Below, piece after piece: positions 1-35,858 of a DNA stretch of 64,000 bases. The stretch is from Bacilli bacterium. GTDB lineage: Bacteria > Bacillota_I > Bacilli_A > RF39 > UBA660. The number at the start of each line of letters is the position of its first letter. Position 1 is the stretch's first letter. The notes under the pieces are model-generated. The model saw only the letters and a program-made list of their open reading frames with translations, made no database searches and was not told the origin of the DNA. The position numbers were made by a program, and so were the translations under genes. The stretch covers positions 74,494-138,493 of the forward strand of contig JAFQES010000018.1 of assembly GCA_017398945.1 (NCBI GenBank), written 5' to 3'.

Positions 1-1071
1 ATCGATTTTATACCGTTTATATGTTTCTGTTACGACATCAGTAAACATTGCTAAAACATCATCTTCAATACTTGGCGTATAGTATTTCATAAAAGCTTTT
101 AATTGTTGTAAAGTTTTAGCTATAACTGTATATCCTAAGCCTTGAGCTATTTCAGTTTCATCGATATCTAAAACAACTTCTAAAGGATTTATCATTCCAA
201 GTTGTCCACCACTACCTAAATCGATAAAGTCTCCACCAACAATATCACACATGTTTTGTAATTCACCTTCTGGGTCAATACAAACAACTTTATAACCATT
301 TCTTAAGTGACTTCTAACAAGTAACTTAGCTGCAGTTGATTTACCACTACCAGCAGAACCCAAAATAATAATGTTAGCATTATTACGATTATTTTCTTTC
401 TTTATTTGATATAAAAATTGATTGAATAAAATGACTCCACCAGAGAAATCAACTCCTAAAAGTGTAGAATTTCCTGGATCTTTAATACTATCAAATACAA
501 ATGGATACATTGCCGATAATGTAACAGATGGAATTGGCGTTCCAATTCTATTTTCAATATCTTGGCTTGGAAAAATTGGAATAATAGACTTTAATACTTT
601 TTCTTGTTCAAACATTAAAGATATTCCACGCATTCCGTAACGATCTAAATGATTACGTACATGCATTTTCTTAAGTTCCAAATCTTCTTTATTATCAGCA
701 GTAATCATTAAATGCATTTGGAAATCGAATATACGAGCTTGAGTAGCTGCTAACATCGAAATAAATTGTTCTAATGATTCATAATCCAAACGAATGCTTT
801 CTTGAATTGTATTATCTTTTTCATTTTGATAACGCATCTTTAGTTCTGCTACTTCTTTATTAAGCATTTTTCTAATTGTGTCAAATGGCATTGGAATATG
901 TTTAATCGCTAACTTGACACCACCGATAGCAGTAATATCTGCTAAGTATCCTACTGGAACAGCTTTTGGAAAAGCAATAACAGTCATAATTGTACAATAT
1001 TTACCACCTAAAATAAATTCAGTTGGTTTAAACTCCATCCCTTTTGGAGCTACTTCACTTTTTAATCCCAT
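1..1071 (-). CDS. VirB4/TraE-family type IV secretion (conjugation) ATPase, ATPase portion; 3' end lies beyond the window
   Basis: The minus strand is open from ATG 1069-1071 down to base 1 (357 codons; my translation starts MGLKSEVAPKGMEFKPTEFILGGKYCTIMTVIAFPK...). Walker A 'IILGSAGSGKST' and 'KVVCIDPEGE' fit VirB4/PrgJ/TcpF-type ATPases. It is missing from the ORF track only because no stop lies inside the window. Confidence 0.85.
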   Translation of the reverse strand, partial: MGLKSEVAPKGMEFKPTEFILGGKYCTIMTVIAFPKAVPVGYLADITAIGGVKLAIKHIPMPFDTIRKMLNKEVAELKMRYQNEKDNTIQESIRLDYESLEQFISMLAATQARIFDFQMHLMITADNKEDLELKKMHVRNHLDRYGMRGISLMFEQEKVLKSIIPIFPSQDIENRIGTPIPSVTLSAMYPFVFDSIKDPGNSTLLGVDFSGGVILFNQFLYQIKKENNRNNANIIILGSAGSGKSTAAKLLVRSHLRNGYKVVCIDPEGELQNMCDIVGGDFIDLGSGGQLGMINPLEVVLDIDETEIAQGLGYTVIAKTLQQLKAFMKYYTPSIEDDVLAMFTDVVTETYKRYKID

Positions 1072-1073
1072 TA

Positions 1074-1628
1074 TTACATCACCGTCCCAAAACTAGTATT
1101 AGCACCATCGTTAAAGAAATTATCTAAAATTACTCTTAAATCATTATTAGAAACTTGAACTGAATTTAATCCAGCATTAGCTAAATTCATAATTAAATTA
1201 CGTAATTTCTTTTGAACTATTTCTAATCTCTTTTCTTTAAATAAAATAAAATATTCTGTATCAACAACGCCATATTCTTGACCAGCAAACATATTCCCTT
1301 TGTTGATATCTTGCATGATTAATTTTCGAGCAATTGGATTAGGGTTGTTATTATATAATAATTGTAATTGAGACATATAAACATGAATATCAACTGGACG
1401 ATCTGCTACGATTAACCAAAATTCATAATCAATTGTATTGTAAAAATTACGAAGGGCTGCTAATGCTGAATCTTGAGCTCCTTTTTCTAAAATAAAGATA
1501 TTTTTAGGAGCAATTTTAACCCCACTTACATATTGTCCATCTTCAAGTTGGATCATACCATTTAAAATTTGTTTAATTGGTAACCAATCCTCTGTATATT
1601 TTTCTCCACTATTTTGTGTCATCGCCAT
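1074..1628 (-). CDS. N-terminal segment of the same VirB4-like protein, cut off from the ATPase part by a frame change (possible pseudogene or split gene)
   Basis: The track ORF 1074..1685 (...EKYTEDWLPIKQILNGMIQLEDGQYVSGVKIAPKNIFILE...) sits where the N-terminal domain of Gram-positive VirB4 proteins would be. It ends at TAA 1074-1076, 2 nt before the ATG of the ATPase part. I chose the internal ATG at 1628 as start because the longer form overlaps the upstream gene by 77 nt. Confidence 0.6.
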   Translation of the reverse strand: MAMTQNSGEKYTEDWLPIKQILNGMIQLEDGQYVSGVKIAPKNIFILEKGAQDSALAALRNFYNTIDYEFWLIVADRPVDIHVYMSQLQLLYNNNPNPIARKLIMQDINKGNMFAGQEYGVVDTEYFILFKEKRLEIVQKKLRNLIMNLANAGLNSVQVSNNDLRVILDNFFNDGANTSFGTVM

Positions 1629-1935
1629 ACCACACACACCAACCTTTCCATTTATAGCTTTTTTGCTTAAAAATAAATGTAACAATATTAATGATTAATT
1701 GTAAAACATTATGATAATGAGGCACTGGCATTACTAAGAAAGCTGATACTAATGCCGGTGCTAAAATCATCATCAAAGTTTTAAATTCAGTTGAATTAAT
1801 TACTAACAACATTATAACTGTAGTTAAGACACCAAAACCAAATATAAACAAATCAACCATTGTAAAATAACCCAATATTAATCCCGATCTTTTTGCATTT
1901 GCTGGAATTAAATATGTTTGTTCTTCTTGTTCCAT
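1609..1935 (-). CDS. VirB3/PrgI-like small membrane protein of the T4SS
   Basis: 108 aa with two hydrophobic segments (GLILGYFTMVDLFIFGFGVLTTVIMLLVI; LMMILAPALVSAFLVMPV), placed directly upstream of the VirB4-like gene as PrgI/VirB3-type genes are. Call rests on topology and context. Confidence 0.55.
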   Translation of the reverse strand: MEQEEQTYLIPANAKRSGLILGYFTMVDLFIFGFGVLTTVIMLLVINSTEFKTLMMILAPALVSAFLVMPVPHYHNVLQLIINIVTFIFKQKSYKWKGWCVWYGDDTK

Positions 1936-1950
1936 ATGTTATCTCCCTTT

Positions 1951-4449
1951 TTATTTATCTTTTCCTTTAATTTTCTTTTGAAACTCTTCTCTTTCTTTTG
2001 CTTCTCTTGCTAAAACCTCGTTATTAGCTCGCAATGCTTCAGCTGCATCCTTGATACTTTTAATATCGCTATTAACATTTGCTGTAACCTCATCTATATA
2101 CTCTTGTCCAAGTTCATTAATTTTCTTAACTTGTCCAGTTATAGTTCCACCCATGGACTTTAATTTGCTTTTTAAATTATCCATGGAAGTTCTTATACCC
2201 TCGAAATCACCATAATTACTTTCTGCAATGTCAAAATTTTCGCTTAAATATTTAAAATCACTAGCATGATCAATTATAGTGTTTTGAGTAGCTTTTGTAA
2301 CTTGTTCCACCATATCATCATAGTATTCTTTATATTTCCCATATGCATTTCTTGCATTAACAATTGCCCTTTCTTTAGCGTGCTCAAAGGCCTCTGTATA
2401 TTTTTTATTTAATTCTTCTGTAATTTTTTTCATTTCCGTTTCAAACTCGTCAGATCCTTCAGTATACATTTTTGAAACTTCTAATTTCTTAGTGTCTAAT
2501 TCTTTATTATATTCAACACCGCCAAGATAATCATCTATGTTAATTGATGTAGCAGCATCAGAAAAATCTGTTTTTGTCATTGTACTAAGTACTGCTTTGA
2601 ATTGCGCTATACTAACTCCGCCTTCTAATGCTCCTGTTTCAATAAATACAGTAGCAACATCCTTGCCTGTTTTTCCCTTAAATTTACCATAATTCATTAG
2701 TCCGTCTTTTAATATACATTTTCCATCTTCTATTTTTCCAATTTTTTCGTTTGTTTCAGCATCTAAAATGTCACTTCCATCTAATTTCATTCCCATTTTA
2801 TCTAACATCTTAAATTTTGCAATTACAGAATCTGCACCAGATACCGCATTTTTCTGATAACTTAATAATTGATTTGCATCGTCAATAACAACTTGATAAT
2901 TTCCAGCTTTTCCTGTCGCCCACTCCATAATATGATCTTTGCGATATTTTAAATTTTCTGCAATTCTTCCTGTTTGAATTACTTCTCCAGCATCGTTTTT
3001 TTGATTAAATAAATAAGGGTTACTAGTTAATGCTGTATATTTTCCAGAGGTCTTGGCATCAGTTCTTGAATTAGCCTTATGAATGCTTCCTTTCATATCT
3101 CCAAAGGTTTTAGCATCCTTACTTGATGTCGCTCCTCTCCATCCACCAGAAACTAATCCACCAACTGCACTAGCTACTCCACGCCCAATTAAACCTGCGC
3201 CTTTTAATTTTGACCATTTATCTTCGCTTTCTAGTTGTTTTTTTCTAATATCATAATAACCTTTTGAAGCTGCTCCTCTTTTAACAAGACCAGATAATGC
3301 ACCACCAACTAATCCTCCGGCCATAAATGCTCCTCCAGCAGATAATTTATCTTTGATACCCATACTCATATTTTTGCTGTCTATACCAGTTATTTCACTT
3401 ATTAATTGTGGAGCTTGTTTAGCAAACATTAAACAGCCCATAATTAGTAAAGCTCTTAACGTACGTATTGTAAAAAAACCTGCATTCTGATCTATAATTT
3501 TTCCATTATTAAGAACAACACAAATTACTCTTATTAAGTAAACCATTAAAAATAGCACTGCAATTCTAAGCATTGCTTCAAAAAAAGTTGTTAAAGTTAC
3601 TTTTATCCATTTTTTTAACATATCTTTTTTACCAGGAATTATATCAGCCATAGCTGGAAGTGGAGCTATGATTTCATAAAGAGCTAACTTTACTAGTCTT
3701 AGTGCAAGGGATAAGTTATAGCTAATCATCATATACAGACAAAAACCTCCTGCGATTATAGCAAAAACCCAATTATATACTATATATCCGTCTCCACGAG
3801 TTTCTTCGTTTATGACATCAGCATAATGTTTATAATGATTAAAATTACCATCAGCTACAACCATGTCATGAATTTCTTGAAATTTTCTTCCACCATAATT
3901 AAAATTAGCTATTTCTTCTTGAATGGTTTCATTATCTTTTGATTCTTCCGCTATATATGGATAGAAAAAAGATTCAAATATAGTAATAGAAATATCTATT
4001 CCAGCTTGATCAATAGCTTCAGCAACAGTTTGTTGATCCCCTGTTTGAGAAACTAAATATTCATTTTTAGAATTAGAATCATTTGTTCCTAATATTATTT
4101 TTCCTATTGTGTTTTTTTCTAGCAATGAATCTTGTACTACAAACGCAAATTCAAATGCAGTTGGGACTATAGCAATAACAATAATTGCTTTTATTACGTC
4201 TAAAATAATTTTACCTGTTCCATTTTTATCTTTTGCATCAGGATTTACGATTGTTCTTAACATTGAGTAAGCTAAGAAAAATAGCATCACAACCCCTATT
4301 ACAGTGTACATTCTTCTTATAATTGGCGCTAAAACATTATCTTCAGTGCTAAATATATTTAATCTTGCTAAATAAAGAAAAATATTATATAAAGCGGCTA
4401 CGCCACTATATATCCAACTTACTACTTCAATCAAAAAGTTATTTATCAT
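1951..4449 (-). CDS. VirB6/TrbL-like polytopic membrane protein with a long charged C-terminal half
   Basis: 832 aa. The N-terminal ~400 aa has multiple TM segments, followed by a Gly-rich stretch (SAGGAFMAGGLVGGALSGLV) and a Lys/Glu-rich, coiled-coil-like C-terminus. It lies between the pilin-like genes and the VirB3/VirB4-like genes. Call rests on architecture and context. Confidence 0.55.
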   Translation of the reverse strand: MINNFLIEVVSWIYSGVAALYNIFLYLARLNIFSTEDNVLAPIIRRMYTVIGVVMLFFLAYSMLRTIVNPDAKDKNGTGKIILDVIKAIIVIAIVPTAFEFAFVVQDSLLEKNTIGKIILGTNDSNSKNEYLVSQTGDQQTVAEAIDQAGIDISITIFESFFYPYIAEESKDNETIQEEIANFNYGGRKFQEIHDMVVADGNFNHYKHYADVINEETRGDGYIVYNWVFAIIAGGFCLYMMISYNLSLALRLVKLALYEIIAPLPAMADIIPGKKDMLKKWIKVTLTTFFEAMLRIAVLFLMVYLIRVICVVLNNGKIIDQNAGFFTIRTLRALLIMGCLMFAKQAPQLISEITGIDSKNMSMGIKDKLSAGGAFMAGGLVGGALSGLVKRGAASKGYYDIRKKQLESEDKWSKLKGAGLIGRGVASAVGGLVSGGWRGATSSKDAKTFGDMKGSIHKANSRTDAKTSGKYTALTSNPYLFNQKNDAGEVIQTGRIAENLKYRKDHIMEWATGKAGNYQVVIDDANQLLSYQKNAVSGADSVIAKFKMLDKMGMKLDGSDILDAETNEKIGKIEDGKCILKDGLMNYGKFKGKTGKDVATVFIETGALEGGVSIAQFKAVLSTMTKTDFSDAATSINIDDYLGGVEYNKELDTKKLEVSKMYTEGSDEFETEMKKITEELNKKYTEAFEHAKERAIVNARNAYGKYKEYYDDMVEQVTKATQNTIIDHASDFKYLSENFDIAESNYGDFEGIRTSMDNLKSKLKSMGGTITGQVKKINELGQEYIDEVTANVNSDIKSIKDAAEALRANNEVLAREAKEREEFQKKIKGKDK

Positions 4450-4467
4450 ATACTATTTACTCCTTTA

Positions 4468-5751
4468 CTAACTTAATTTACACGTGGTGTAAGCCCCTAA
4501 TAAAGATAATATAAAATTAATTAATATTGGGAGAAAGAATATTACAATAGCAGCAATTAATCTTTTTACGGCAGTTGTTGTAGATTTTTTTAGTTGGTCT
4601 TTATCTTGATTTATTGTAGCTTTAATAAAATCCATAGTGCTTAAAGCAAACGTTAAAATAATTGCGCCATATTTCATGATATTTAATGTTAAATCCAAAT
4701 AATATGCTGGTTCACAATTAGTCCCCGTCGGACACTCACGACTTCCTAAAAAACCTTCACAGCCTTCTTCTCCGCCCCAATCGATTTTATATTTTTCTAT
4801 ACTTTTAATTCGAAAATTAGCATAATTTCCTAAGCCTTCTGCAAGGTCATTTATATTTTCTGAAACATTTCCTATGTATTCTTGTCTTTGCTCTTCGCTT
4901 AATGATTGATCATTTTCTATAACTTTTTGACACGAATCATAAGCTGAATTAAATTTTGTATTAACTACAGAGGCTACCTTATCAAAAGCATTAGTGTTTA
5001 ACATAAAATCTGGAATATCTTCCACTTGCCAATCGCTATGAATAAAATATGATTGGATTAATTGTTTTTTTATTTGAGTTTCTATTTCTGTAATGTATTC
5101 AGTTACTATTCCATTTTCATCTTCCCTTTTATTTTTCAAATTATTACAAAATGGATTTTCTTCCAAACTTTTATCAGGATAAACACTAAATTTAACAGCT
5201 AAATATTTATCTAACATTGTATTAATAATTTTTTCTTGCTCAGACATAAAATTGAAAGTTCTAATTGCATTTGTTATTGTCCAAGACTTTTCCTTGTGTT
5301 TTGTTTCTAAATAGAATTTTTCATCAGTTGGTTCGTCAAAAAATTTTGGTTCCCCAATTGCTCCCAATGCATCCGGCAAGTCAAAGTAAGCATATGATGG
5401 ACATTGATAAGCTTCTATCATTTCTTTAAATTTTGTTTTATTTAAAGTTTCTCGAGGTATTAAAGCTATCGGATCTGAAGACTTAATACTATATGACTTA
5501 ATTTCATTATCTACCTTTAAACCTTGATAAATCAATTCATATTTATCTGAATTAGGAGAATAGTAAATTGCTGATTTTAATTTTATTAATTTGTTTTCAT
5601 TGGAATCCTTTGAGTTTTTATATTGCAAATGATTTTCATACTCACAAATTTTCACAGAATCACCATATGAAGGTTCCAAATCTGTAGCTAGAACTTTTGT
5701 GGGAAGAAACATAAAAATAACTAGTATTACAAAAAATATAACTTTCTTCAT
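4468..5751 (-). CDS. Secreted T4SS-associated protein with a C-terminal pilin-like two-TM module
   Basis: 427 aa with signal peptide MKKVIFFVILVIFMFLPTKVLA. The last ~80 aa (IMKYGAIILTFALSTMDFIKATINQDKDQLKKSTTTAVKRLIAAIVIFFLPILINFIL) align with the 124-aa and 139-aa pilin-like proteins at 5760..6134 and 35892..36308. Confidence 0.5.
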   Translation of the reverse strand: MKKVIFFVILVIFMFLPTKVLATDLEPSYGDSVKICEYENHLQYKNSKDSNENKLIKLKSAIYYSPNSDKYELIYQGLKVDNEIKSYSIKSSDPIALIPRETLNKTKFKEMIEAYQCPSYAYFDLPDALGAIGEPKFFDEPTDEKFYLETKHKEKSWTITNAIRTFNFMSEQEKIINTMLDKYLAVKFSVYPDKSLEENPFCNNLKNKREDENGIVTEYITEIETQIKKQLIQSYFIHSDWQVEDIPDFMLNTNAFDKVASVVNTKFNSAYDSCQKVIENDQSLSEEQRQEYIGNVSENINDLAEGLGNYANFRIKSIEKYKIDWGGEEGCEGFLGSRECPTGTNCEPAYYLDLTLNIMKYGAIILTFALSTMDFIKATINQDKDQLKKSTTTAVKRLIAAIVIFFLPILINFILSLLGAYTTCKLS

Positions 5752-5759
5752 AAATTCAC

Positions 5760-6134
5760 CTACTCTGAAAATATTCCATCTTTATCGTTTATTTTACATG
5801 AAGATGGTTCCTTTAAACACTTTGTTAAACAATCGAATGTTTTAACTTTATTAACACCATCTACTAAAGACATTACAGCAGTTATTGCATAAGGAATAAA
5901 GAAAATTATTATTGCTGCAATTGCCTTTTTTACTAAAGCACTTATTGCCACTTTGATTGCTTTATCATCGCTTGCTAAAACTGCTTTACCTAGTTCAAAT
6001 GATCCAAGTCCTATTAAAAGAATTGGAATAACAATTTTTAAAAATACTAATACGTATCCAAGTATTTGAAACGCTTTTAATAAGCCACTTTGATCACATA
6101 TTGCAAAGTCAGCTAAAGTAAAAAATTTTTCCAT
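5760..6134 (-). CDS. VirB2/TrbC-like (pilin-like) two-TM conjugal transfer protein, first gene of the T4SS operon
   Basis: 124 aa with a TM hairpin, IVIPILLIGLGSFELGKAVLASDDKAIKVAISALVKKAIAAIIIFFIPYAI, and a Cys-containing tail. Topology and position match pilin-like genes of Gram-positive and Mollicutes ICE T4SS clusters. Family assignment is from memory of that family and is not verified. Confidence 0.5.
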   Translation of the reverse strand: MEKFFTLADFAICDQSGLLKAFQILGYVLVFLKIVIPILLIGLGSFELGKAVLASDDKAIKVAISALVKKAIAAIIIFFIPYAITAVMSLVDGVNKVKTFDCLTKCLKEPSSCKINDKDGIFSE

Positions 6135-6163
6135 AATAAACCTCCAAAAGATTTATATTCTTT

Positions 6164-6180
6164 GACATAATTATACAATA
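6164..6180 (-). promoter_or_regulatory. Possible extended -10 promoter (TGTATAAT) for the T4SS operon
   Basis: The minus strand reads ...ttattgTATAATtatgtc... about 30 nt upstream of the GGAGG and ATG of 5760..6134, just downstream of the weak hairpin that ends the VanY-like gene. No good -35 element. Confidence 0.3.
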
Positions 6181-6195
6181 AAAAAATAGCTTGTG

Positions 6196-6735
6196 CTATC
6201 TTTTTTTGTTATTTAATTGGAAATATTCTTCTAAAGTTAAGTAATCTCCATTGTTATATAGTTCTTTTGCTAAATTTTTACCTACATATCTAAAGTGCCA
6301 TGGTTCATATTTATAACCAGTAATCAACTTTTTTCCTTTCGGATATCTTAAGATAAATCCAAATTTATAAGAATTATGATATAACCATTTGTATTCTTTA
6401 TGATGTTTTTTTATTAGCTTTGATTCTGTATTTACTAAATCTATTGCCAGTCCAGTTTGATGCTCGGAATAACCTGGCATAGCTAAGTATTTTTTGATAT
6501 TTTCAATATTATCAACACGTAAATACTCTTTTAATAATTTTTGTTGATATTTATAAGATCTATAACCACTTACTATATGTAAATTAATTTTATCTTCTTG
6601 AGCTTGACGCCACATTTTATCATATTGGATTAATAATTCTTTATTTAGTTTTTTAGGATTAAAAAATCTAGATAATTTATATTTTTTATTAACTATTAGT
6701 ATTTTTTCTTTATTAAATTTAACATACTTTTTCAC
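6196..6735 (-). CDS. D-alanyl-D-alanine carboxypeptidase, peptidase M15B (VanY-like)
   Basis: Motifs SGYRSYKYQ, SEHQTGLAIDL and EPWHFRYVG match the VanY/M15B zinc-binding and catalytic motifs. No N-terminal signal peptide or TM segment is visible. Confidence 0.85.
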   Translation of the reverse strand: MKKYVKFNKEKILIVNKKYKLSRFFNPKKLNKELLIQYDKMWRQAQEDKINLHIVSGYRSYKYQQKLLKEYLRVDNIENIKKYLAMPGYSEHQTGLAIDLVNTESKLIKKHHKEYKWLYHNSYKFGFILRYPKGKKLITGYKYEPWHFRYVGKNLAKELYNNGDYLTLEEYFQLNNKKR

Positions 6736-6803
6736 TATATCACCAATGTAATTCTATGCTAATTTTTAATTTACTTTAAACATATAATTTGTTAAAATAA
6801 ATT

Positions 6804-7367
6804 ATGAAAGGATATGATAGTATGCCTAAGGCAAAAAAAGTTAAAAATATACCTGTAAAAAATTATTATATGGTTATTTTTATTATTATAGCAGTAATAT
6901 TAGCTACTTTATATATTTTTAAAATGTACGAAGTAAAAAAAGCTGAAAAATATCAAGAAAGTTACCTAATTACAAGTGAAACAGTTAGTTTAGAAATTAA
7001 TGATTTAAACGAAATTAATCAAGTGTTTATGGAAGCCCCAGAAACTTATTTTGTTTATATTGGTTATACTAAAGATGAAAATGTTTATAATTTTGAAAAA
7101 GAACTAAAACCAATTATTGAAGAATATGGTTTAAAGGATGTCTTTTATTACATCGATGCTACTAATTTAAAGGAAGAAGATAATTATCTTGATAAATTAA
7201 ATGATAGTTTAAATTTAAAAGAAGATAAATTAGATAAGATACCAGCTATTATATATTTCAATAATGATACTTATGAAATTGTCAAAAGAGATGATGATAA
7301 TATGATTAAAGCTGCAGACTTAGGCAAATTATTAGATATAAATAATATAGAAAAGATAAGCCAATAA
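6804..7367 (+). CDS. Membrane-anchored protein with a thioredoxin-fold-like ectodomain lacking CxxC (hypothetical)
   Basis: 187 aa with an N-terminal TM segment (YYMVIFIIIAVILATLYIF) and a C-terminal 'IPAIIYFNND' strand like thioredoxin-fold proteins, but no cysteine pair. The ATG at 6822 has the better SD (AAAGGA). Confidence 0.4.
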   Translation: MKGYDSMPKAKKVKNIPVKNYYMVIFIIIAVILATLYIFKMYEVKKAEKYQESYLITSETVSLEINDLNEINQVFMEAPETYFVYIGYTKDENVYNFEKELKPIIEEYGLKDVFYYIDATNLKEEDNYLDKLNDSLNLKEDKLDKIPAIIYFNNDTYEIVKRDDDNMIKAADLGKLLDINNIEKISQ

Positions 7368-7393
7368 GGCTTATTTTTTAAAGGAGTTAAAAG

Positions 7394-7906
7394 ATGATAA
7401 ATATAGTTTTATTTGAACCAGAAATACCTACTAATACTGGTAATATTATGAGAAGTTGTATTGCTACTAAATCTACCCTACATTTAATTAAACCTCTAGG
7501 TTTTTCTTTAGATGATAAATACGTTAAAAGAAGTGGTGTCAATTATATAGATAAATGTAATTATAAAATTTATGAGAATATAGAAGATTTTTATAATCAA
7601 AATGAGGGAACAATGTATTATTTTACAAGATATGGTCATAAACCACATACTTCCTTTGATTATAGTGATTCTAATGAAAATATCTATTTTATTTTTGGTA
7701 AGGAAAGTACTGGAATACCACCTAAGTTATTAAAACCTCATTTAGATAAATGCATGCGCATTCCAATGAGTGCTGATGTAAGAAGTCTTAACTTATCTAA
7801 TTGTGTTGCAATTGTCTTATACGAAGCTTTAAGACAACAAAATTATAATGATTTATTATTTGATGAACCACATAAAAGTAAAACTTTTATTGAAGACGAA
7901 AATTAA
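7394..7906 (+). CDS. trmL: tRNA (cytidine/uridine-2'-O)-methyltransferase TrmL (SpoU/TrmH family)
   Basis: MINIVLFEPEIPTNTGNIMRSC..., GKESTGIP and RSLNLSN are the SpoU-type motifs. The ~170 aa size fits TrmL. Confidence 0.85.
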   Translation: MINIVLFEPEIPTNTGNIMRSCIATKSTLHLIKPLGFSLDDKYVKRSGVNYIDKCNYKIYENIEDFYNQNEGTMYYFTRYGHKPHTSFDYSDSNENIYFIFGKESTGIPPKLLKPHLDKCMRIPMSADVRSLNLSNCVAIVLYEALRQQNYNDLLFDEPHKSKTFIEDEN

Positions 7907-7916
7907 AAATATAAAG

Positions 7917-8741
7917 TTAATCTAAAACTTTATATTTTTTATTTTCTTTTTCAATTTGTTTTAAGCTTTTATCAGGTGTAGGTAAAGCTTCTGGCATCGT
8001 TCCACCAATATCTGCAATTGCTTTCCTAACTTTTTTCCCAACATCATAATGTACTTGATTGGCATTATTTTCTCCTTGGACTTTATCTTTCTTTAATTTT
8101 TGTTCTGTTTGCGAAATTCTAAATAAGTTTGCGATAAGTTCGTCACTACCCATATTATCTAAAATATCTTCTCTATAGTTAAGATTTTTTCTTTTAGCAA
8201 TATCATTTGCTGTTTCTCCATTATATAATCCCTTATAACCAGCGTTATGAAACTTATCAAAATTTTTAACTGCAGAGTTTTTAGCAGCAATGTTTAAGGA
8301 ATGATTTCCTTTTCTAGTTAAGTTTCTTTGGTAGAATCTTTTTTCTTCTTCAGTCAAACTAGAATATTCTTTTTCAGTAATTTCCATTTTCCTAGTTTGG
8401 ATAGCAAAATAAGTTTGTCCAAGAGCAACAGATTTTTTTCTAGGATTAGCATTTTGTACTATTAAATAACATGCATATCTTGACAAACGATAATCTACAA
8501 TATTTTGAATATTTCCTTTACCGCCTACTATCGGTTTCCTGACTTCAGGAAACTGATCAAAAGCTTTTGAAGTACTGTTTTCACATGAAACTATCGCTTG
8601 TTTTATGACTCTGTGAAAATTTTCCCATTTACTATATTCAAGTATTGGCATTAGCTCTCTCGCTTCCCAATATTCTCTTCCGAGTTCATCTATATGTTTT
8701 ATATTTTCAAATATATTATGATTAATTTCTAAATCAGTCAT
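7917..8741 (-). CDS. dinD: DNA-damage-inducible protein D (DinD family), copy 1
   Basis: LSRYACYLIVQNA, GQTYFAIQTRK, HNAGYKGLYNG, DNMGSDELIANLFRISQTEQKL and GGTMPEALPTP are collinear with E. coli DinD. Confidence 0.85.
   Translation of the reverse strand: MTDLEINHNIFENIKHIDELGREYWEARELMPILEYSKWENFHRVIKQAIVSCENSTSKAFDQFPEVRKPIVGGKGNIQNIVDYRLSRYACYLIVQNANPRKKSVALGQTYFAIQTRKMEITEKEYSSLTEEEKRFYQRNLTRKGNHSLNIAAKNSAVKNFDKFHNAGYKGLYNGETANDIAKRKNLNYREDILDNMGSDELIANLFRISQTEQKLKKDKVQGENNANQVHYDVGKKVRKAIADIGGTMPEALPTPDKSLKQIEKENKKYKVLD
8046..8400. repeat. Near-identical ~350-bp direct repeat shared by the two tandem dinD copies (copy A)
   Basis: By-eye alignment with 8909-9263 shows only a handful of mismatches across ~350 nt. 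The flanking gene parts are clearly diverged. Confidence 0.8.
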
Positions 8742-8806
8742 TATATATCACTCCTTTCATTAGTTATATTTCTAAAGTTTAAATTATTTCCTTGTTATAT
8801 TTGGTT

Positions 8807-9604
8807 TTATTTTTCCAATTGTTTTAAGCTTTTAGCTGGAGTTGGTAACTCTTCTGGCATAGTTCCAACATTTTTTGCTATTACATCTCTGATATTTTTT
8901 CCAATATGATAATGTACTTGATTGGCATTATTTTCTCCTTGGACTTTATCTTTCTTTAATTTTTGTTCTGTTTGAGAAATTCTAAATAAGTTTGCGATAA
9001 GTTCGTCACTACCCATATTATCTAAAATATCTTCTCTGTAGTTGAGATTTTTTCTTTTAGCAATATCATTTGCTGTTTCTCCATTATATAATCCCTTATA
9101 ACCAGCGTTATGAAACTTATCAAAATTTTTAACTCCAGAGTTTTTAGCAGCAATGTTTAAGGAACCATTTCCTTTTCTATTTAAGTTTCTTTGGTAGAAT
9201 CTTTTTTCTTCTTCAGTCAAACTAGAATACTCTTTTTCGGTTATTTCCATTTTTCTGGTTTGAATTGCAAAATATGTTTGCGCAAATGCAATCACTTCTT
9301 TTCTTGAATCACCATTTTGCGCAACGAGATAACATGCGTAACGACTCAGTTTATAATCTTCAACCCTTCTTTTACCACCTTTTCCAAGTTTTATCATTTT
9401 GGCTACCTTGACAAAATGATCATTAATACTAACGTTACTGTTTTCACAAGCGATTAAAGCTTTTTTAATAACATTTTCAAACTTACGCCATTCTTTATAA
9501 ACAAAAACTAATTGCAACTCTCTTGCTTCCCAATATTCTTTTCCAAGTTCATCTATATGTTTTATATCTTCAAATATATAATGATTAATTTCTAAATTAT
9601 TCAT
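8807..9604 (-). CDS. dinD: DNA-damage-inducible protein D (DinD family), copy 2 (tandem paralogue)
   Basis: Same motifs as copy 1. The C-terminal half is nearly identical at nucleotide level, while the N-terminal ~110 aa are divergent. Confidence 0.85.
   Translation of the reverse strand: MNNLEINHYIFEDIKHIDELGKEYWEARELQLVFVYKEWRKFENVIKKALIACENSNVSINDHFVKVAKMIKLGKGGKRRVEDYKLSRYACYLVAQNGDSRKEVIAFAQTYFAIQTRKMEITEKEYSSLTEEEKRFYQRNLNRKGNGSLNIAAKNSGVKNFDKFHNAGYKGLYNGETANDIAKRKNLNYREDILDNMGSDELIANLFRISQTEQKLKKDKVQGENNANQVHYHIGKNIRDVIAKNVGTMPEELPTPAKSLKQLEK
8909..9263. repeat. Near-identical ~350-bp direct repeat shared by the two tandem dinD copies (copy B)
   Basis: See 8046-8400; the offset is about 863 nt. 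Confidence 0.8.
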
Positions 9605-9665
9605 TATATATCACTCCTTCATTAGTTATATTGCTAATAACACATCAATTTCCTTTTTATTTCAT

Positions 9666-9699
9666 AAAAAAAGTAAAATAGTTTATTTATTTTACTTTT
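9666..9699 (-). terminator. Rho-independent terminator after the P-type ATPase gene
   Basis: 11-bp stem aaaagtaaaat/attttactttt with a 9-nt loop, followed by a T-run on the minus strand, 8 nt after the stop at 9707. Confidence 0.65.
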
Positions 9700-9706
9700 A
9701 GAAAAT

Positions 9707-12337
9707 TTACACTCCGGTTTTTAAATGTTTCTTACGTAGGATAGTCTTACGGATAAAGTCTATCGGTATAACAGTAAATGCCATGATTAAAACAAAAGCA
9801 AATTCTGATGCATGAAGTCCATAAGTTCTAAATAAGTCTCCACCATGATAAATTAAATATATTTGAACACTAACGATAAATGCTATTACTACTATAAAAA
9901 CTTTGTTTTTAGTAATGTTTCCTAAAATGTTTAATCTTTGACTTCTCGCGTTAAATGAATTAAAGATGCCAATAAAAATAAATAACGCAAAGTAAGCAGT
10001 CATTAAGTATATATTATCAGGTCCTGTTCTTATAAATGTTTTAATTATTGGTAATTTTAGAAATAAAATACATAAAATTGCTGAATATAAACCGGTAAAG
10101 AATATTTCCCCATACATATACGAATTCATAATTGGTTCATTTTTAGCTTTTGGTGGTTCTTTCATATATTCTTTTAATGGTGGTTCAAAGGAAAATGCTA
10201 AACCAGCAAAAGTATCCATAATCATATTTAACCATAGCATTTGAATTATTGTTATAGGTGTATCTATCCCAATAAATGGTCCAACAATTGATAAAACTAA
10301 AGCACACATATTAACTGTTAATTGATAGATAATAAATTTACGAATACTTTTAAAAATAGTTCTTCCATAAAGGATAGCTTTACTTATAGATAAAATGTTA
10401 TTATCTAGAATGATTATATCAGCAGCTTCTTTGGCAACCTCTGTTCCACTTCCCATAGCAAAACCAACATCAGCTTTTTTTAATGCCGGAGCATCATTTA
10501 CGCCGTCTCCTGTCATTCCGACAATTAATTCCATATCTTCAAGTATCTTAACTAATCTAGATTTATCACTAGGTAAAGCTCTAGCAATAACTTTGATATG
10601 CATAATTATTTTTTTGATTTCCTCATCAGATAAGTTATTTAAATCATTACTTGTTAAAACTAAATCATTAGCATCATCAATTAGCCCTACTTCCGCAGCA
10701 ATATTTTTGGCAGTATCTAGAGCATCTCCTGTAATCATAATGGTATGAATTCCGGCGCTTTTAATTAATGATATTCCTTCTTTGGCTTCTTTTCTTAATT
10801 CGTCTTTTATACAAACAATTCCTAAAATTGTACAACCACTTAATTTATCACTTGTATCATTATAAGCGAGTAATATTACTCTGTTTCCTTTTTTGGTTAA
10901 ATCTTTTATTTTATTTTCAATATTATCTTTTTTTAATAAAACATTTTTTTTACCAAATTTATCAACACAATATCTAGCTGCCGGCAATATAACTTCAGTA
11001 GCACCTTTAAAATAAGTAAAACCATTACTTTTGGCAATTGTAACGGCACTATACTTTTTGGAACTATCAAATAAAATTTTGTTAATAACTCCAAAATTAT
11101 TTACTTTGGCGTCTTTAACGTAATTAAGTAAAGCTTGGTCAGTCATATTACCACCGATAATCTTTTCTCCCGTTACTTTACTTTCATTATTATAATAAAG
11201 ATTTTCTATTACTAATTCGTGATAAGTTTTAAATCTTTCTAAAGCTTTGATTGAATTAAATAAAGTTAGATCTGGACTATAAATAGCAGATACTTCTAAC
11301 TCTCCTTTAGTTAATGTTCCTGTCTTATCGGTAAGTAAAACATTTAAACTTCCGGCGGTTTCAATTCCAACTAATTTTCTAACCAAAACATTATCTTTTA
11401 ACATCCTTTTCATATTACTTGATAATACTAAAGTTATCATCATTGGAAGTCCTTCTGGTACTGCAACTACAATGATTGTGACACTTAATGTTAACGCATA
11501 TAATAAATAACTAGACATCATTTGAAAATTTGTTATTGTTGATAAAATTAATTCTTTATCAAAATTATTTTTAATAAAAATTACTGCAAAAAGATATGAT
11601 AGAGTAACCAAACCAGCCCCGATATAACCTATTTTACTAATAACATTAGCTAGTCCTCTTAAACGTAATTTTAAAGGACTTGTTGGATTTTTTTCTTGTA
11701 GTTCTTTAGCTAACTTTCCGTAAATAGTTTTATCCCCTACACTTGTCACAATCATTGTTGCCTCACCACTATAAACAACAGCTCCACGATATATTTTATT
11801 TGCTTCTGTTGGAGGATTTAGTTTATTTAACACGCTAAATTTTTTAGCTTCTTTTTTTTCACCATTTAATGAACTTTCATCAACCGATAAATTTCCTTTA
11901 AACAGATATCCGTCAGCTGGTATTTTATCTCCACTTTGTAAACTAACGTAATCACCTACTACTATTTCTTCTATAGGTATTTCTTTTAATTTGTTTTGAC
12001 GCCACACTTTAGCTTTTATTTTAGAAGCTTCTTCTTGTAATTTTTCAAATGCCGCTTCACTTCCATATTCAGAAATTGAAGAAATAAACGACGCTAAAAA
12101 GACAGCTATTAGTATTCCAATTGTTTCATATATATCAAAATCTTTAAAAAGAAATAACACTTTAATGGCTAAAGCAATTAATAAGATTCTAATAATTGGA
12201 TCAGCAAGTGATTCATATAATAGCTTTAAAAAACTATTTTTTTTAGTTTGAGTAATACTATTTGTACCATTTTCTTTACGGCTTTTTAATACTTGTTCAT
12301 TATTTAATCCGTTCATTATAGGCTTGTCCTCCCACAA
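9707..12337 (-). CDS. P-type Ca2+-transporting ATPase (P2 type)
   Basis: Phosphorylation motif LLTDKTGTLT, VPEGLPMMITL in TM4, TGDALDTA and GDGVNDAPALKKADVGFAMG. 876 aa with about 10 TM segments. Confidence 0.9.
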   Translation of the reverse strand: MWEDKPIMNGLNNEQVLKSRKENGTNSITQTKKNSFLKLLYESLADPIIRILLIALAIKVLFLFKDFDIYETIGILIAVFLASFISSISEYGSEAAFEKLQEEASKIKAKVWRQNKLKEIPIEEIVVGDYVSLQSGDKIPADGYLFKGNLSVDESSLNGEKKEAKKFSVLNKLNPPTEANKIYRGAVVYSGEATMIVTSVGDKTIYGKLAKELQEKNPTSPLKLRLRGLANVISKIGYIGAGLVTLSYLFAVIFIKNNFDKELILSTITNFQMMSSYLLYALTLSVTIIVVAVPEGLPMMITLVLSSNMKRMLKDNVLVRKLVGIETAGSLNVLLTDKTGTLTKGELEVSAIYSPDLTLFNSIKALERFKTYHELVIENLYYNNESKVTGEKIIGGNMTDQALLNYVKDAKVNNFGVINKILFDSSKKYSAVTIAKSNGFTYFKGATEVILPAARYCVDKFGKKNVLLKKDNIENKIKDLTKKGNRVILLAYNDTSDKLSGCTILGIVCIKDELRKEAKEGISLIKSAGIHTIMITGDALDTAKNIAAEVGLIDDANDLVLTSNDLNNLSDEEIKKIIMHIKVIARALPSDKSRLVKILEDMELIVGMTGDGVNDAPALKKADVGFAMGSGTEVAKEAADIIILDNNILSISKAILYGRTIFKSIRKFIIYQLTVNMCALVLSIVGPFIGIDTPITIIQMLWLNMIMDTFAGLAFSFEPPLKEYMKEPPKAKNEPIMNSYMYGEIFFTGLYSAILCILFLKLPIIKTFIRTGPDNIYLMTAYFALFIFIGIFNSFNARSQRLNILGNITKNKVFIVVIAFIVSVQIYLIYHGGDLFRTYGLHASEFAFVLIMAFTVIPIDFIRKTILRKKHLKTGV

Positions 12338-12360: not shown

Positions 12361-13308
12361 TTAATGACTAGTTTTATAATTTAAAAAATTTATAACTAAA
12401 TCGACTAAAATATCTTTTTCTTTAGGATCAGATTGAGCGATTAACAATGTAATGCCAACTAACGCATTATTATCAATAACTTGATTTCCATTTAAATAAA
12501 GTAAATTATAGAAGTTTAAGAAGTAGATAAATAATGTTGCCGCAATTCTTTTATTCCCATCAATAAATACATGGTTTTTCGTAATTAAATATAAAAGATT
12601 AGCCGCTTTTTCTTCAATGGACGGATATACATCCTTGCCATCAAATGATTGATATATAGCTCCTAATATTGATTTTAAACCTTCATTCCTTTCAAGAGCA
12701 AATAATTTACTCTTTTCATCAAATTTTAAACTCCTAATAACATTTAAACAATCTTCATAAGTTATTTTGTTATAAGAAATATTTCCTTTGGGTTTAGAAA
12801 GTCTTTGATGATCATAATCATCCAGAAGATTAAAAGCTTTTGAATAATTATTTATAACTCTGATTATCTCTTGAGATTCAGAATTCTCCAAATTTTGATC
12901 AATTCTACTAGCAATATCAATTAGCTTAATAGTTTTTTCGAGATATTCTAATCTTTTATTATTAATAGCGTGTCCTTTAATTAAATAATCTTTTAGAATC
13001 TTATTTGCCCATTTTCTAAAAATTATTCCATTTTTTGATTTAACGCGATAACCTACACTTATTATCATGTCCAAATTATAATAATCAACATTATAAACTT
13101 TACCATCTCGAGCAGTTGTTGCAAATTTTGCAATAACTGAATTTGATAATTCTTCTGCCAATATATTTTTAATGTGCCTAAATATAACCGATTTATTTCG
13201 ATTAAATAATTGAATCATCTGATCTAAAGATAGCCACACAGTTTCATCTTGAAGATTTACTTCTAATTTTATATCTTGATCTTCAAACAAGATAATTTCA
13301 TTTTTCAT
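12361..13308 (-). CDS. RhuM-family N-domain fused to a Fic/DOC domain
   Basis: The N-terminal half has YNLDMIISVGYRVKSKNGIIFRKWA (RhuM-like core). The C-terminal half carries the Fic/Doc motif HVFIDGNKRIAA. Confidence 0.75.
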   Translation of the reverse strand: MKNEIILFEDQDIKLEVNLQDETVWLSLDQMIQLFNRNKSVIFRHIKNILAEELSNSVIAKFATTARDGKVYNVDYYNLDMIISVGYRVKSKNGIIFRKWANKILKDYLIKGHAINNKRLEYLEKTIKLIDIASRIDQNLENSESQEIIRVINNYSKAFNLLDDYDHQRLSKPKGNISYNKITYEDCLNVIRSLKFDEKSKLFALERNEGLKSILGAIYQSFDGKDVYPSIEEKAANLLYLITKNHVFIDGNKRIAATLFIYFLNFYNLLYLNGNQVIDNNALVGITLLIAQSDPKEKDILVDLVINFLNYKTSH

Positions 13309-33167: not shown

Positions 33168-34379
33168 CTAAGAGAAATTAAACATTAGCCAATTAGGCTT
33201 AAATATCATTAAAATTCCGATTAATAGCATGATTATCGCACCGATTAAATGTGAGTATTTTGTATATTTTGTGGTTAATCCACTTACTTTAAAACTAATC
33301 ATGGCTATAGTAAATATTATTAAATCATCTAACAAAAAGAACAAAATATAGACAATTAAGTATAATAAAGCTTTTATTCCTGTAATATTATTGATTGCTA
33401 AGATATTACTAAACACTACTGGAAGTCCTGCTGAACAAGCTAGTTCAACAATATTTACTGATATAGCTAAACCAACTACCCCGATAATTGATAAAAAAAT
33501 ACTCTTTTCACTCGTAAATTTCTTTATTTTAGCAAATGTCTTTTTTCTTTTACTTTCATCAACAATCCTACATCCAGCATCTTTTTTACATTCATTATAG
33601 TAATTTCTAAAGTTAAATAAACTTGCTAAAACAGCTAAAACACCAATAATTAATTGAACTATTTTTATGTTAGTAAAGTTTACAATAACAGTTAACCACG
33701 ACATCATGAATGCTAAATAAATCAAAGCGGAAGTTACTAAGAAAGTAATTCCAAGTATCCACATTTTTTTACGATCCTTCATATTGATTAACATGCTGAT
33801 TAAAAATATCAACACCCACATTGCGCAAGGATTAAAGCCATCAACTAAACCAATAACTGCACTTGCAAGCAAAATACTTACCTTTTTAGGATTAATCTCA
33901 CCTAATAATGGTATTTTTATATTAGATTCATCAATTGTTATCTTTTCTTTTTCATAATATTCATCGATATTATCTTTAGTAATCTTTTTATTTAAGATTT
34001 TATCAACAAAATCAATATAAGTCCCCTCTTGGTATGCTTCAACTATTTTTTTTATCTCAGATGAGGTATCATCACTATATCCTACTATAGTTTTACTTCC
34101 AATTACGGTAAATGGAACATAAGGACTTGATTCATCAAAAACATCTTTAACTAAATCTAGTTTTTCAGCATTAACTTTATTGTAATTCACTTCAAAATAA
34201 TGAATTTTAATATTTTCTTCATTTTTATACTCATTTAAAAACTCTTTTTCACTTTGACAATGTGGACAATCTTTAGAATAAAATAAATAAATGTCAATTA
34301 ATTTTTGTTCATCAGCAAATCCTAATAAAGGAAATAATATGAATAAAAATAAACTAAATATATATACAACTTTTTTCAT
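33168..34379 (-). CDS. Secreted thioredoxin-like domain fused to a CcdA/DsbD-type thiol-disulfide membrane transporter
   Basis: Signal peptide, CPHC in the N-terminal domain, and a six-TM C-domain with GFNPCAMWVL and ELACSAGLP. Confidence 0.65.
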   Translation of the reverse strand: MKKVVYIFSLFLFILFPLLGFADEQKLIDIYLFYSKDCPHCQSEKEFLNEYKNEENIKIHYFEVNYNKVNAEKLDLVKDVFDESSPYVPFTVIGSKTIVGYSDDTSSEIKKIVEAYQEGTYIDFVDKILNKKITKDNIDEYYEKEKITIDESNIKIPLLGEINPKKVSILLASAVIGLVDGFNPCAMWVLIFLISMLINMKDRKKMWILGITFLVTSALIYLAFMMSWLTVIVNFTNIKIVQLIIGVLAVLASLFNFRNYYNECKKDAGCRIVDESKRKKTFAKIKKFTSEKSIFLSIIGVVGLAISVNIVELACSAGLPVVFSNILAINNITGIKALLYLIVYILFFLLDDLIIFTIAMISFKVSGLTTKYTKYSHLIGAIIMLLIGILMIFKPNWLMFNFS

Positions 34380-34387
34380 AAAACCTC

Positions 34388-34642
34388 CTAATTTTCAATT
34401 ATATTTTTAATTTCTTCTAAAGTTTTTTCGCCATCAAGACGAGCAATTAAATCATCATTTCGATAAAACAAGATAACGGGTAAAATATCTTTTACATCGT
34501 ACTCTTTAACAATATCTTCATCCATATCATAATCGTATTCAATTATTTCAATATCAGGATAATCTTTTTTTAAAATATCCCAATATTTATGCATTTTTAA
34601 ACATGCTGAGCACCACATTGCCCCTATTTTAATTATTTTCAT
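34388..34642 (-). CDS. Thioredoxin-family protein
   Basis: 84 aa with GAMWCSACLKM (CxxC) and a thioredoxin-like layout. Confidence 0.75.
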   Translation of the reverse strand: MKIIKIGAMWCSACLKMHKYWDILKKDYPDIEIIEYDYDMDEDIVKEYDVKDILPVILFYRNDDLIARLDGEKTLEEIKNIIEN

Positions 34643-35833: not shown

Positions 35834-35858
35834 ACAAAAAAACCCAATTAGGGTTTTA
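35834..35858 (-). terminator. Rho-independent terminator closing the Tad-like/pilin-like gene block
   Basis: The minus strand reads aaaaccc-taatt-gggtttt followed by further Ts, 34 nt after the stop of 35892..36308. Confidence 0.65.

Follow-up and report, generated by a model that had tools for sequence, protein, structure and literature searches.

Arrays of pilin-like membrane hairpin genes link a Tad-like operon to a relaxase-less type IV secretion system in uncultured gut Bacilli

VirB2- and VirB5-type subunits are absent from the type IV secretion systems (T4SSs) of Gram-positive bacteria, with Patescibacteria as the single exception among monoderms (PMC12857230). The Patescibacteria systems have arrays of 2-11 pilin genes of the Pfam family PF18895 (T4SS_pilin) near virB4, separate genes for TrsD and VirB4, and no relaxase (PMC12102498). 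For Ca. Southlakia epibionticum the pilin array has proved essential (PMC12857230). Such arrays are described as VirB2-like (Wang et al. 2023, as cited; Quinonero-Coronel et al. 2025, PMC12102498); their origin has been left open, with the remark that they are "absent in MPF_FATA" (PMC12102498), and that paper, too, finds VirB2 homologues lacking in the other Gram-positive T4SSs. No pilin-like component is listed in PMC12857230 for the integrative and conjugative elements (ICEs) of Mycoplasma, no wider search having been made. Here we analyse a 64,000-nucleotide stretch, referred to throughout as the window, of a gut metagenome contig 174.8 kb in length (JAFQES010000018.1, positions 74,494 to 138,493 of the forward strand, assembly GCA_017398945.1, a Bacilli bacterium of GTDB group RF39). 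It carries a Tad-like block and a T4SS block about 30 kb apart, and three genes for a two-helix membrane hairpin, one at the end of the former and two at the head of the latter. All genes of the two blocks for which window coordinates are given below lie on the minus strand.

The three hairpin genes, all present as open reading frames (ORFs) at the coordinates given earlier, encode a free-standing protein of 124 aa (5760..6134), a second free-standing protein of 138 or 139 aa (35892..36308) and a 427-aa fusion protein (4468..5751). In the fusion, a signal-peptide-like N-terminus and an ectodomain of about 320 aa, beta-rich first and then helical, are followed by a Cys-rich linker and a C-terminal hairpin at about residues 345-420 (4492..4719; profile match at aa 360-428 of the stop-to-stop segment). 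An earlier note on this DNA had proposed that the three share one module of two transmembrane (TM) helices and a loop, and the peptides it quoted match. In pairwise BLASTP with compositional adjustment, the 124-aa and 139-aa proteins are 47% identical over 100 aa (E 2e-27), and the C-terminus of the 427-aa protein matches the 124-aa protein at E 6e-9 and the 139-aa protein at E 7e-13. A search with a hidden Markov model (HMM) of the module through every six-frame segment of 30 aa or longer in the window found exactly three copies (E 1e-35 to 5e-39), the next best segment having an E of 0.1. A TTG at 36311 would make the larger free-standing protein 139 aa long and a better-placed ATG at 36308 would make it 138 aa; the ATG, which agrees with the coordinates given earlier, is the likely start, and we retain the name 139-aa protein.

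The shared module comprises TM1, a polar loop of the form G-K-A-V..DDK.IK....L.KR, and TM2. In the 139-aa protein, a short N-terminal tail with a conserved Cys leads into TM1, the charged loop GKAVVANDDKAIK...VKR, TM2 and a tail with the pattern CxxC...C; the corresponding tail of the 124-aa protein reads Cx3C...C. The Cys tails described earlier on both free-standing copies are thus confirmed; the description had overlooked the conserved Cys before TM1. An alignment of 20 relatives shows C12, C104 and C115 in every sequence and C101 in nearly every one, and the most conserved part of the module is the loop and not the exposed tails. Because the polar loop and the cysteines are conserved, the similarity goes well beyond hydrophobic composition. 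In both free-standing proteins about 18-20 polar residues precede TM1, with no in-frame start further upstream.

To place the genes in context, one genome per species (GTDB representatives) was scanned with an alignment of the family, yielding 390 relatives, and the window proteins were mapped onto the best 80 loci. These come almost entirely from uncultured gut Bacilli, "Tenericutes" or Erysipelotrichaceae metagenome-assembled genomes (MAGs), the closest named relative (L005) being a "Bacilli bacterium" MAG from goat rectum. Fifty loci, all from other species, had enough sequence on both sides to be informative, and in 49 of them the hairpin family adjoins the Tad-like block, the T4SS block or both. 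The two blocks are contiguous in 21 loci; 14 have an array and the T4SS with no Tad-like block within 10 kb upstream; eight have, like the window, the full Tad-like block and a hairpin gene with no T4SS downstream; six have the Tad core, one hairpin gene and then unrelated genes; and one has neither block. Since 49 of 50 loci adjoin one or both blocks, the hairpin is not a generic one and its neighbourhood is conserved, the two points at which the earlier note had considered its proposal vulnerable. With 21 loci in which the blocks run on continuously, the connection that it had drawn between the T4SS and the Tad-like operon is stronger than first proposed.

The contiguous loci follow a common order: the 252-aa and 987-aa proteins, DUF5411, the RcpC-like protein, CpaF, two membrane proteins, the small pilins, two larger pilin-like proteins and the 331-aa protein, then the hairpin genes and those for the VirB6-like, VirB3-like, TrsD-like and VirB4 proteins, all co-directional, with the hydrolase and coupling protein next wherever the sequence extends far enough. 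The 331-aa gene is always immediately upstream of the first hairpin gene in the relatives. Arrays contain two to eight hairpin genes (one in a single locus), and in 40 loci they stand immediately upstream of the VirB6-like, VirB3-like, TrsD-like and VirB4 genes. Across the 80 loci there are 235 hairpin-bearing ORFs, all co-directional within their loci, of which 122 are free-standing (at most 170 aa) and 113 are fused, so the fusion to an N-terminal ectodomain pointed out in the 427-aa protein proves to be a regular feature of the family. The fusions have N-terminal extensions of up to about 670 aa that fall into at least 19 unrelated BLAST clusters, and the module is C-terminal in nearly all of those inspected, with one exception (L014).

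Analysis of distances between the modules separates two types. Type A groups the 139-aa protein of the window with the first gene after the 331-aa gene in other species, and type B groups the hairpin of the 427-aa protein with the genes, free-standing or fused, that lie immediately upstream of the VirB6-like gene. The nearest neighbours of the 124-aa protein are type-A genes, the 139-aa copy included, and it is a diverged type-A paralogue. Taken together, the synteny shows a single co-directional supercluster of Tad-like and T4SS genes as the ancestral, or most common, layout; the window and the close relatives of this genome have a derived split of it, with the halves about 30 kb apart in the window. 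Misassembly was considered as the cause of the split and rejected, because the same split is seen in independent assemblies and in other species (L001-L007, L085-L087 and L093). The link between the two loci is real and ancestral.

The 139-aa protein aligns, through residues 18-85, to positions 4-71 of the 71-position PF18895 profile with 23.0 bits (E 8e-5; gathering cut-off 26.6). PF18895 is matched at E<0.01 by 17 of 20 aligned relatives (best E 4.8e-8), three of the 20 weakly match T4SS_CagC, and many homologue clusters bear a precomputed PF18895 match. With a profile of the family, 9,283 cluster representatives were found at E<=1e-3 in a library of 1.84 billion proteins. By these profile comparisons the three ORFs appear to be paralogues within one large family of two-helix membrane hairpins, PF18895, an assignment that holds at the family level. 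An AlphaFold2 model of the 139-aa protein, with a mean predicted local distance difference test score (pLDDT) of 79.7, has two helices of about 35 residues each (16-51 and 54-88) and a helical, Cys-rich tail. The model of the 427-aa protein, built from only five sequences, is of low confidence (pLDDT 66.9; predicted template-modelling score 0.40).

The T4SS block runs in the order VanY, 124-aa protein, 427-aa protein, then proteins of 832, 108, 187, 594, 651 and 289 aa and a 754-aa coupling protein; the 124-aa gene does open the block, as had been said, lying directly after the VanY gene and having a GGAGG ribosome-binding site. The 832-aa VirB6-like polytopic membrane protein (1951..4449) is conserved in its N-terminal membrane half and hypervariable in the C-terminal one. 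Its matches to the NCBIfam models MMCAP2_0566 (E 3.9e-10) and Mbov_0396, an ICE transmembrane protein (E 2.5e-9), do not reach the cut-offs. Next come a 108-aa VirB3/TcpE-like membrane protein (1609..1935) with a weak Pfam TcpE match, a 187-aa TrsD/TraC-like protein (1074..1637) with a precomputed PF26593 match, whose gene overlaps the preceding one by 29 nt, and a 594-aa VirB4 ATPase, of whose gene the 5' part (1..1071) lies in the window before the gene runs off its edge. These three proteins align consecutively to NF045975 (894 positions) at positions 2-96, 98-280 (E 3.6e-13) and 296-893 (E 2.7e-104); what is one VirB4 polypeptide in Mycoplasma ICEs is thus three consecutive genes here (1..1935 of the window; 9703..12351 in L088), the 187-aa protein being the separately encoded equivalent of the VirB4 N-terminal domain. 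VirB4 also matches NF045971 (E 4e-48), and its scores for both models are below cut-off. A frameshift or pseudogene at about 1074-1098 was considered and rejected: given the consecutive alignment, the break is the boundary between the TrsD-like and VirB4 genes, and the same boundary recurs in a related strain, L090, and is known from Patescibacteria.

On the same contig past the window lie the genes for a 651-aa SpoIID-domain hydrolase, the 289-aa protein and the coupling protein, followed by housekeeping genes (rhodanese, DedA-like, RmuC, nucleoside phosphorylase). The coupling protein scores 296.9 bits against NF045973, above the cut-off of 250, matches PF02534 at E 1.6e-52 and belongs to the conjugative family CD1115. 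Pfam matches computed beforehand annotate almost the whole window and the 3 kb that follow the coupling protein; no relaxase, integrase or replication gene is among them. The flanks hold RmuC, PyNP, LeuRS, TyrRS, PFOR and RNase Y; the last four of these, together with FtsW/RodA, transporters and similar housekeeping genes, fill the 30-kb interval separating the blocks and the remainder of the window. The T4SS is chromosomal, and by sequence models it is closest to the systems of Mollicutes ICEs. The term "conjugation system", used for it in the earlier note, is doubtful, because it is set among housekeeping genes of the chromosome and no relaxase or integrase lies in the window or in the 3 kb just past the coupling protein.

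The Tad-like block spans 36369..46762 and opens with two secreted Cys-rich proteins of 987 and 252 aa (43044..46762), neither with a Pfam match; the 252-aa protein has a C-terminal anchor, and the counterpart of the 987-aa protein in L047 is 1,302 aa long. They are followed by a 265-aa RcpC/CpaB-like protein and a 137-aa DUF5411 protein with a pilin-like N-terminus (41801..43027), assigned through Pfam matches of 22.9 bits (cut-off 28.8) and E 6e-56, respectively. A 378-aa CpaF-type secretion ATPase (40650..41786; Pfam T2SSE, E 6e-29) has as its best solved relatives CpaF (E 1e-19), then VirB11 (6e-15) and FlaI. Position and sequence place two polytopic membrane proteins of 262 and 297 aa (38953..40634) where TadC and TadB would be expected; neither has a T2SSF match in Pfam or a match in the PDB. 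The candidate fibre subunits of the Tad-like machine are two small prepilin-like proteins of 76 and 90 aa (38360..38872), in which a conserved leader, MKEATGEL or MKEAISEL, is followed by a single hydrophobic helix and a C-terminus rich in Cys; among 61 orthologues of the small pilin, 43 have MKEATGEL. Two minor-pilin-like proteins of 162 and 157 aa (37377..38349) have leaders of the form MK[DE]xxG[GS] before a hydrophobic helix, and the last gene of the block (36369..37364) encodes a 331-aa protein without a Pfam or PDB match, which may be TadZ/CpaE-like, a candidate label. Five short conserved leaders before a hydrophobic helix can be read in all (MKEATGEL, MKEAISEL, MKEAIGG, MKDVYGS and MKDTYWG, within 37377..38872 and 42614..43027). 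They are unlike the Flp G/XXXXEY motif, and no A24 prepilin peptidase gene is found in the annotated window. The block is thus a divergent type IV filament system with candidate fibre subunits of its own. Given these prepilin-like genes, it does not need the hairpin to make its fibre.

Divergence between related strains distinguishes two kinds of component. When the window genome is compared with L090, identity is 98% for VirB4, 99% for the TrsD-like protein, 96% for the VirB3-like protein and 94% for the 124-aa hairpin (ratio of nonsynonymous to synonymous divergence, dN/dS, 0.15); the 139-aa hairpin is 94% identical to that of L005 (dN/dS 0.14). Because both free-standing genes are under purifying selection, they are functional and not relics. 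The 427-aa fusion as a whole is 59% identical to its L090 counterpart, with 94% identity in the hairpin and 35% in residues 1-160, for which the synonymous divergence (dS) is 1.3 vs about 0.2-0.27 for most neighbouring genes. The VirB6-like protein is likewise split, with about 90% identity in its N-terminal half and 15-29% in its C-terminal half, and the SpoIID-domain hydrolase (54%) and the 289-aa protein (25%) are also divergent. Genes flanking these sites are 91-99% identical between the two genomes; the mosaic sites themselves are 1951..4449 and 4468..5751 of the window and 12394..15215 of L088, each compared with L090. Mosaic divergence this extreme between close relatives suggests that cassettes were replaced by recombination, fast point evolution being no more than part of the cause. 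In the Tad-like block, compared with L005, the 987-aa protein is 56% identical while its neighbours are at least 90%, and the divergent members as a whole are this protein and the pilin-like ones (56-75%), vs at least 90% for cytoplasmic and membrane parts. The pattern is one of conserved core subunits combined with exposed parts that are exchanged or diversify rapidly. The hypervariable ectodomain of the 427-aa protein fits a surface-exposed role in recognition, and the role of pilin-anchored adhesin that had been suggested for this protein seems plausible.

We favour, with some reserve, an account in which the arrays at the junction of the two systems are pilin-like, with type-A hairpins building a pilus or stalk and hairpin fusions displaying recognition modules on it. 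In a broad clade of uncultured, low-GC gut Bacilli, arrays of two to eight hairpin genes join the Tad-like operon to a relaxase-less chromosomal T4SS; in the split represented by the window, the type-A 139-aa gene stayed at the Tad-like end, and the 124-aa gene and the type-B 427-aa gene lead the T4SS block. The hairpin would be inserted with both ends outside and the basic loop inside, a topology that fits the basic loop itself, the extracellular cysteines on both tails, and the signal peptide and ectodomain that precede TM1 in the fusions. On a platform of the VirB6-like protein and VirB4, type-A subunits could then assemble to form a short, wall-spanning pilus or stalk, and hairpin fusions would anchor variable ectodomains on it as target-recognition modules. 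The Tad-like fibre would provide longer-range attachment or retraction, bringing a target cell to the T4SS, into which the coupling protein would feed DNA or protein.

Several results weigh against this account. None of the three window proteins reaches the PF18895 gathering score of 26.6, and the 124-aa and 427-aa proteins have no match to that model; hmmscan gave no PF04956 (VirB2/TrbC) match for the window proteins or the 20 relatives, and NCBIfam has no model for the hairpin proteins. An hhalign comparison of 124 family members with five VirB2/TrbC proteins of Agrobacterium and Acetobacteraceae type, taken from plasmid records, returned a probability of 0.5%, the same as controls; the test lacks power, as a control comparison of Bacilli VirB3-like with proteobacterial VirB3 proteins likewise found nothing. 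Searching PDB sequences with the family profile produced spurious matches to G protein-coupled receptors (GPCRs) and nucleoproteins (E>0.3). Foldseek searches of the PDB returned nothing at E<=0.001, either for the 139-aa model (unrelated helical proteins only), for which the search is uninformative because the model is a bare hairpin, or for the low-confidence 427-aa model, whose ectodomain fold was thus unmatched. VirB2 typically has a cleaved signal peptide, and neither free-standing copy does. The label "VirB2-type" that had been attached to the module is therefore not supported in the sense of homology: "VirB2-like" here refers to the Pfam family, the architecture and the genomic context. 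The pilus is predicted from genes alone and no filament has been seen; the sequencing runs that contain this sequence are gut DNA metagenomes only, with no RNA runs among them. Genomic association is also imperfect. In a reverse survey that started from the CpaF-like ATPase in metagenome contigs, hairpin genes followed the 331-aa gene in 33 of 45 informative loci and no hairpin gene followed the Tad-like block in the other 12, so it does not hold that the 139-aa gene always accompanies the Tad-like operon, and 13 species have a hairpin gene directly after the Tad core with no T4SS within 10 kb. On account of these two groups, the association with either machine is strong and not obligate.

The loci that depart from the common layout are of several kinds. 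In L172 (11126..17547), one of the 12 without a hairpin gene, the 331-aa gene directly precedes genes for a wall hydrolase of 795 aa, a lipoprotein and a coupling protein that shares 61% identity with the one in the window genome, and hairpin, VirB6-like and VirB4 genes are missing in between; this locus represents a different breakpoint of the same supercluster. The 13 species with a T4SS-less hairpin gene (L047 at 1162..10360, and L017, L019, L026, L033, L040, L053, L054, L066, L068, L069, L076 and L084) share a reduced operon of Cys-rich proteins, DUF5411, RcpC-like protein, CpaF, two membrane proteins and one PF18895-type hairpin gene, in which the small prepilin genes and the 331-aa gene are missing; seven of the 13 fall outside the count of 50 informative loci, their downstream sequence being too short. 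In L150, from a human-gut lineage, a PF18895-type hairpin gene (8404..8847) takes the position of DUF5411, before the RcpC-like gene, instead of standing last in the Tad-like operon.

The most serious alternative, which we judge somewhat unlikely, is that the hairpin is a non-polymerising subunit or anchor in or beside the VirB6/VirB3/VirB4 translocon, comparable to a small channel accessory, that tethers ectodomains in the fusions, with no pilus being formed. A role of this kind would agree with the lack of detectable homology to proven pilins, with a loop that is the most conserved part, as expected for an interaction at the cytoplasmic face, with the fact that close to half of the family serve larger proteins as C-terminal anchors, and with the statement that monoderm T4SSs other than those of Patescibacteria are without VirB2 and VirB5, which make up the pilus in diderms (PMC12857230). 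It accounts less readily for a PF18895 assignment and an array organisation that match the Patescibacteria pilin arrays, for the presence of a conserved, abundant-type free-standing paralogue beside fused ones that vary, as major and minor subunits do, and for modelled helices of about 35 residues, which exceed a simple membrane span. It is improbable, and more so than an anchor, that the 139-aa protein serves the Tad-like machine itself, as an assembly or anchoring subunit independent of the T4SS, with the 124-aa copy doing the same for the T4SS. The 13 species with a hairpin gene last in the Tad core operon, no small prepilin genes and no T4SS nearby would be explained in this way, as would the retention of the 139-aa gene with the Tad-like block, under purifying selection, in the window's clade. 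A single N-terminal helix and a prepilin leader mark the subunits of type IV filaments; the 139-aa protein has neither, whereas five other proteins of the block have them, and the 14 species with an array and T4SS but no Tad-like block within 10 kb, together with the 12 Tad-like loci of 45 lacking a hairpin gene, also speak against a purely Tad-related function.

That the supercluster is instead the transfer module of an ICE, in which a Tad-like pilus stabilises mating pairs as in R64 and PAPI-1, the hairpins are subunits for mating-pair formation, and the relaxase and integrase lie elsewhere or went unrecognised, seems quite unlikely to us. The VirD4-type coupling protein of the conjugative family CD1115, above cut-off, would suit such an element, the closest VirB4 and VirB6 models are Mycoplasma ICE proteins, Bro-N and RhuM/Fic genes lie a few kb upstream, and precedents for conjugation assisted by type IV pili are cited in PMC12102498. 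Set against these are the absence of a relaxase, integrase or replication gene over the annotated range, the housekeeping flanks, the 30 kb of core genes between the two halves, the presence of the cluster in hundreds of species-level genomes with synteny kept within clades, and a tblastn search of the 139-aa protein against 72,556 plasmids that gave no match. Finally, low-complexity TM segments can inflate similarity, as the weak spurious GPCR matches illustrate, and one might suppose that the resemblance is that of generic hydrophobic hairpins or that the 139-aa gene was left over from the rearrangement and is decaying. This explanation is effectively refuted by a BLASTP E of 2e-27 despite compositional adjustment, by a polar loop and four cysteines whose conservation hydrophobicity cannot explain, by a context conserved in 49 of 50 loci, and by an intact ORF with a dN/dS of 0.14.

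Returning to the pilin-like arrays, the closest counterpart by composition is the T4SS of Patescibacteria. Both have PF18895-type arrays of sequence-variable members near virB4 (2-11 genes there, 2-8 here), separate TrsD-like, VirB3-like and VirB6-like genes, a wall hydrolase, a chromosomal location and no relaxase, and both occur in organisms that also have a type IV pilus system. In contrast, the host here belongs to Bacillota (uncultured gut Bacilli), the coupling protein is part of the cluster whereas in the candidate phyla radiation its gene mostly lies far from virB4, large ectodomains are fused to about half of the hairpins, the tails are Cys-rich and a Tad-like operon is physically joined to the cluster. 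The ICE T4SSs of the Mollicutes Mycoplasma agalactiae and M. bovis (CDS5 VirD4, CDS16 VirB6-like, CDS17 VirB4) are similarly minimal monoderm systems and provide the best NCBIfam models for VirB4 (NF045975) and the 832-aa protein (Mbov_0396, MMCAP2_0566). They differ in that the VirB4 and 832-aa scores fall below the family cut-offs, that one Mycoplasma polypeptide corresponds to three genes here, and that the present cluster has a wall hydrolase, in a host with peptidoglycan genes, and lacks a DDE transposase, an integrase and other parts of the ICE backbone.

Classical VirB2/TrbC/TraA pilins (PF04956; Agrobacterium T-pilus and F-pilus) resemble the hairpins in being small two-helix proteins with a basic loop and both termini predicted outside, encoded at the head of the T4SS operon upstream of VirB3 and VirB4, but neither sequence nor profile comparison found any similarity, a cleaved signal peptide is missing from the free-standing copies, the present loop, of about 24 residues, is longer, the extracellular tail is Cys-rich and the host is a monoderm. 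Tandem variable genes for pilus subunits, thought to diversify target binding, are known from Bartonella Trw (PMC12857230, PMC12102498), where VirB2 and VirB5 are amplified and variable; that system is found in a diderm, lacks a coupling protein and places its variable parts in separate VirB5-type proteins, not in ectodomains fused to hairpins. The R64 thin pilus, PAPI-1 and the Ups/Ced systems of Sulfolobales likewise couple a type IV filament to a machine with VirB4 or a type IV coupling protein, as cited in PMC12102498 and PMC12857230, whereas the present filament is of a divergent Tad/CpaF kind, in a monoderm, within one operon-like cluster with the T4SS and with VirB2-like hairpins in addition. 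Compared with Tad/Flp (type IVc) systems, the block shares a CpaF-type ATPase, a weak RcpC/CpaB-like protein, two platform-like proteins, small and larger pilins and a possible TadZ-like protein; it departs from them in the leader MKEATG-EL instead of Flp G/XXXXEY, in the lack of T2SSF, TadE and TadZ Pfam matches and of a prepilin peptidase in the window, and in the two large Cys-rich secreted proteins that open it.

Full-text literature searches with PF18895, T4SS_pilin, DUF5411 and RF39/RFN20 plus secretion turned up no description of such a system in Bacilli, nor one of a Tad-like/T4SS operon fusion in monoderms. The present loci place PF18895 arrays in bona fide Bacillota, beside a T4SS closest to monoderm families (Mollicutes ICE, CD1115), and so make the origin of the Patescibacteria pilins testable by joint phylogenies of VirB4, TrsD and the hairpins. 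They also show a type IV filament operon physically fused to a T4SS, an arrangement not described before in monoderms and hypervariable in its surface-exposed parts, in a group of abundant animal and human gut bacteria that have never been cultured. A broader proposal, which we regard as unlikely, is that this gut Bacillota clade possesses a contact apparatus of the Patescibacteria kind, with a relaxase-less T4SS, a PF18895 VirB2-like pilus with hypervariable tips, and a Tad-like operon fused to it. If true, this would be the first pilus-forming T4SS in Firmicutes, would imply a contact-dependent and possibly epibiotic or obligately partner-dependent lifestyle, and would identify a monoderm lineage from or into which the T4SS and pilins of Patescibacteria were exchanged.

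Some further features of the window concern the surroundings of the 139-aa gene. The promoter TTGACA-17-TAAAAT that the earlier note had assigned to this gene is present on the minus strand (36362..36334, 11 of 12 matches), in the 57-bp gap upstream of the gene, but 65 such promoter-like motifs were found in the AT-rich DNA of the window vs 74 expected from shuffles; since they are no commoner than in shuffles, the motif is weak evidence for a promoter. Between the 139-aa gene and a NifS-like gene, a weak terminator-like hairpin, AAAACCC-TAATT-GGGTTTT followed by Ts (35836..35857, minus strand), can be read by eye and was not flagged by a terminator scan. Directly downstream of the 139-aa gene (33168..35762, minus strand) lie genes for the NifS-like aminotransferase, an 84-aa thioredoxin (CSAC) and a 403-aa protein in which a secreted thioredoxin-like CPHC domain is fused to a CcdA/DsbD-like membrane domain. 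These could be disulfide machinery for the Cys-rich exported proteins of both blocks; their adjacency is confined to the window's clade (also L005-L007, which have in common a NifS-Trx-Dsb-HD continuation, and L093) and may be coincidental. Two tandem Bro-N paralogues, a RhuM/Fic gene and a third short Bro-N gene (7917..9604, 12361..13308, 55237..55566) are found among the housekeeping genes as phage-like or mobile-element-like remnants, and strain L090 is without one Bro-N copy and the RhuM/Fic gene.

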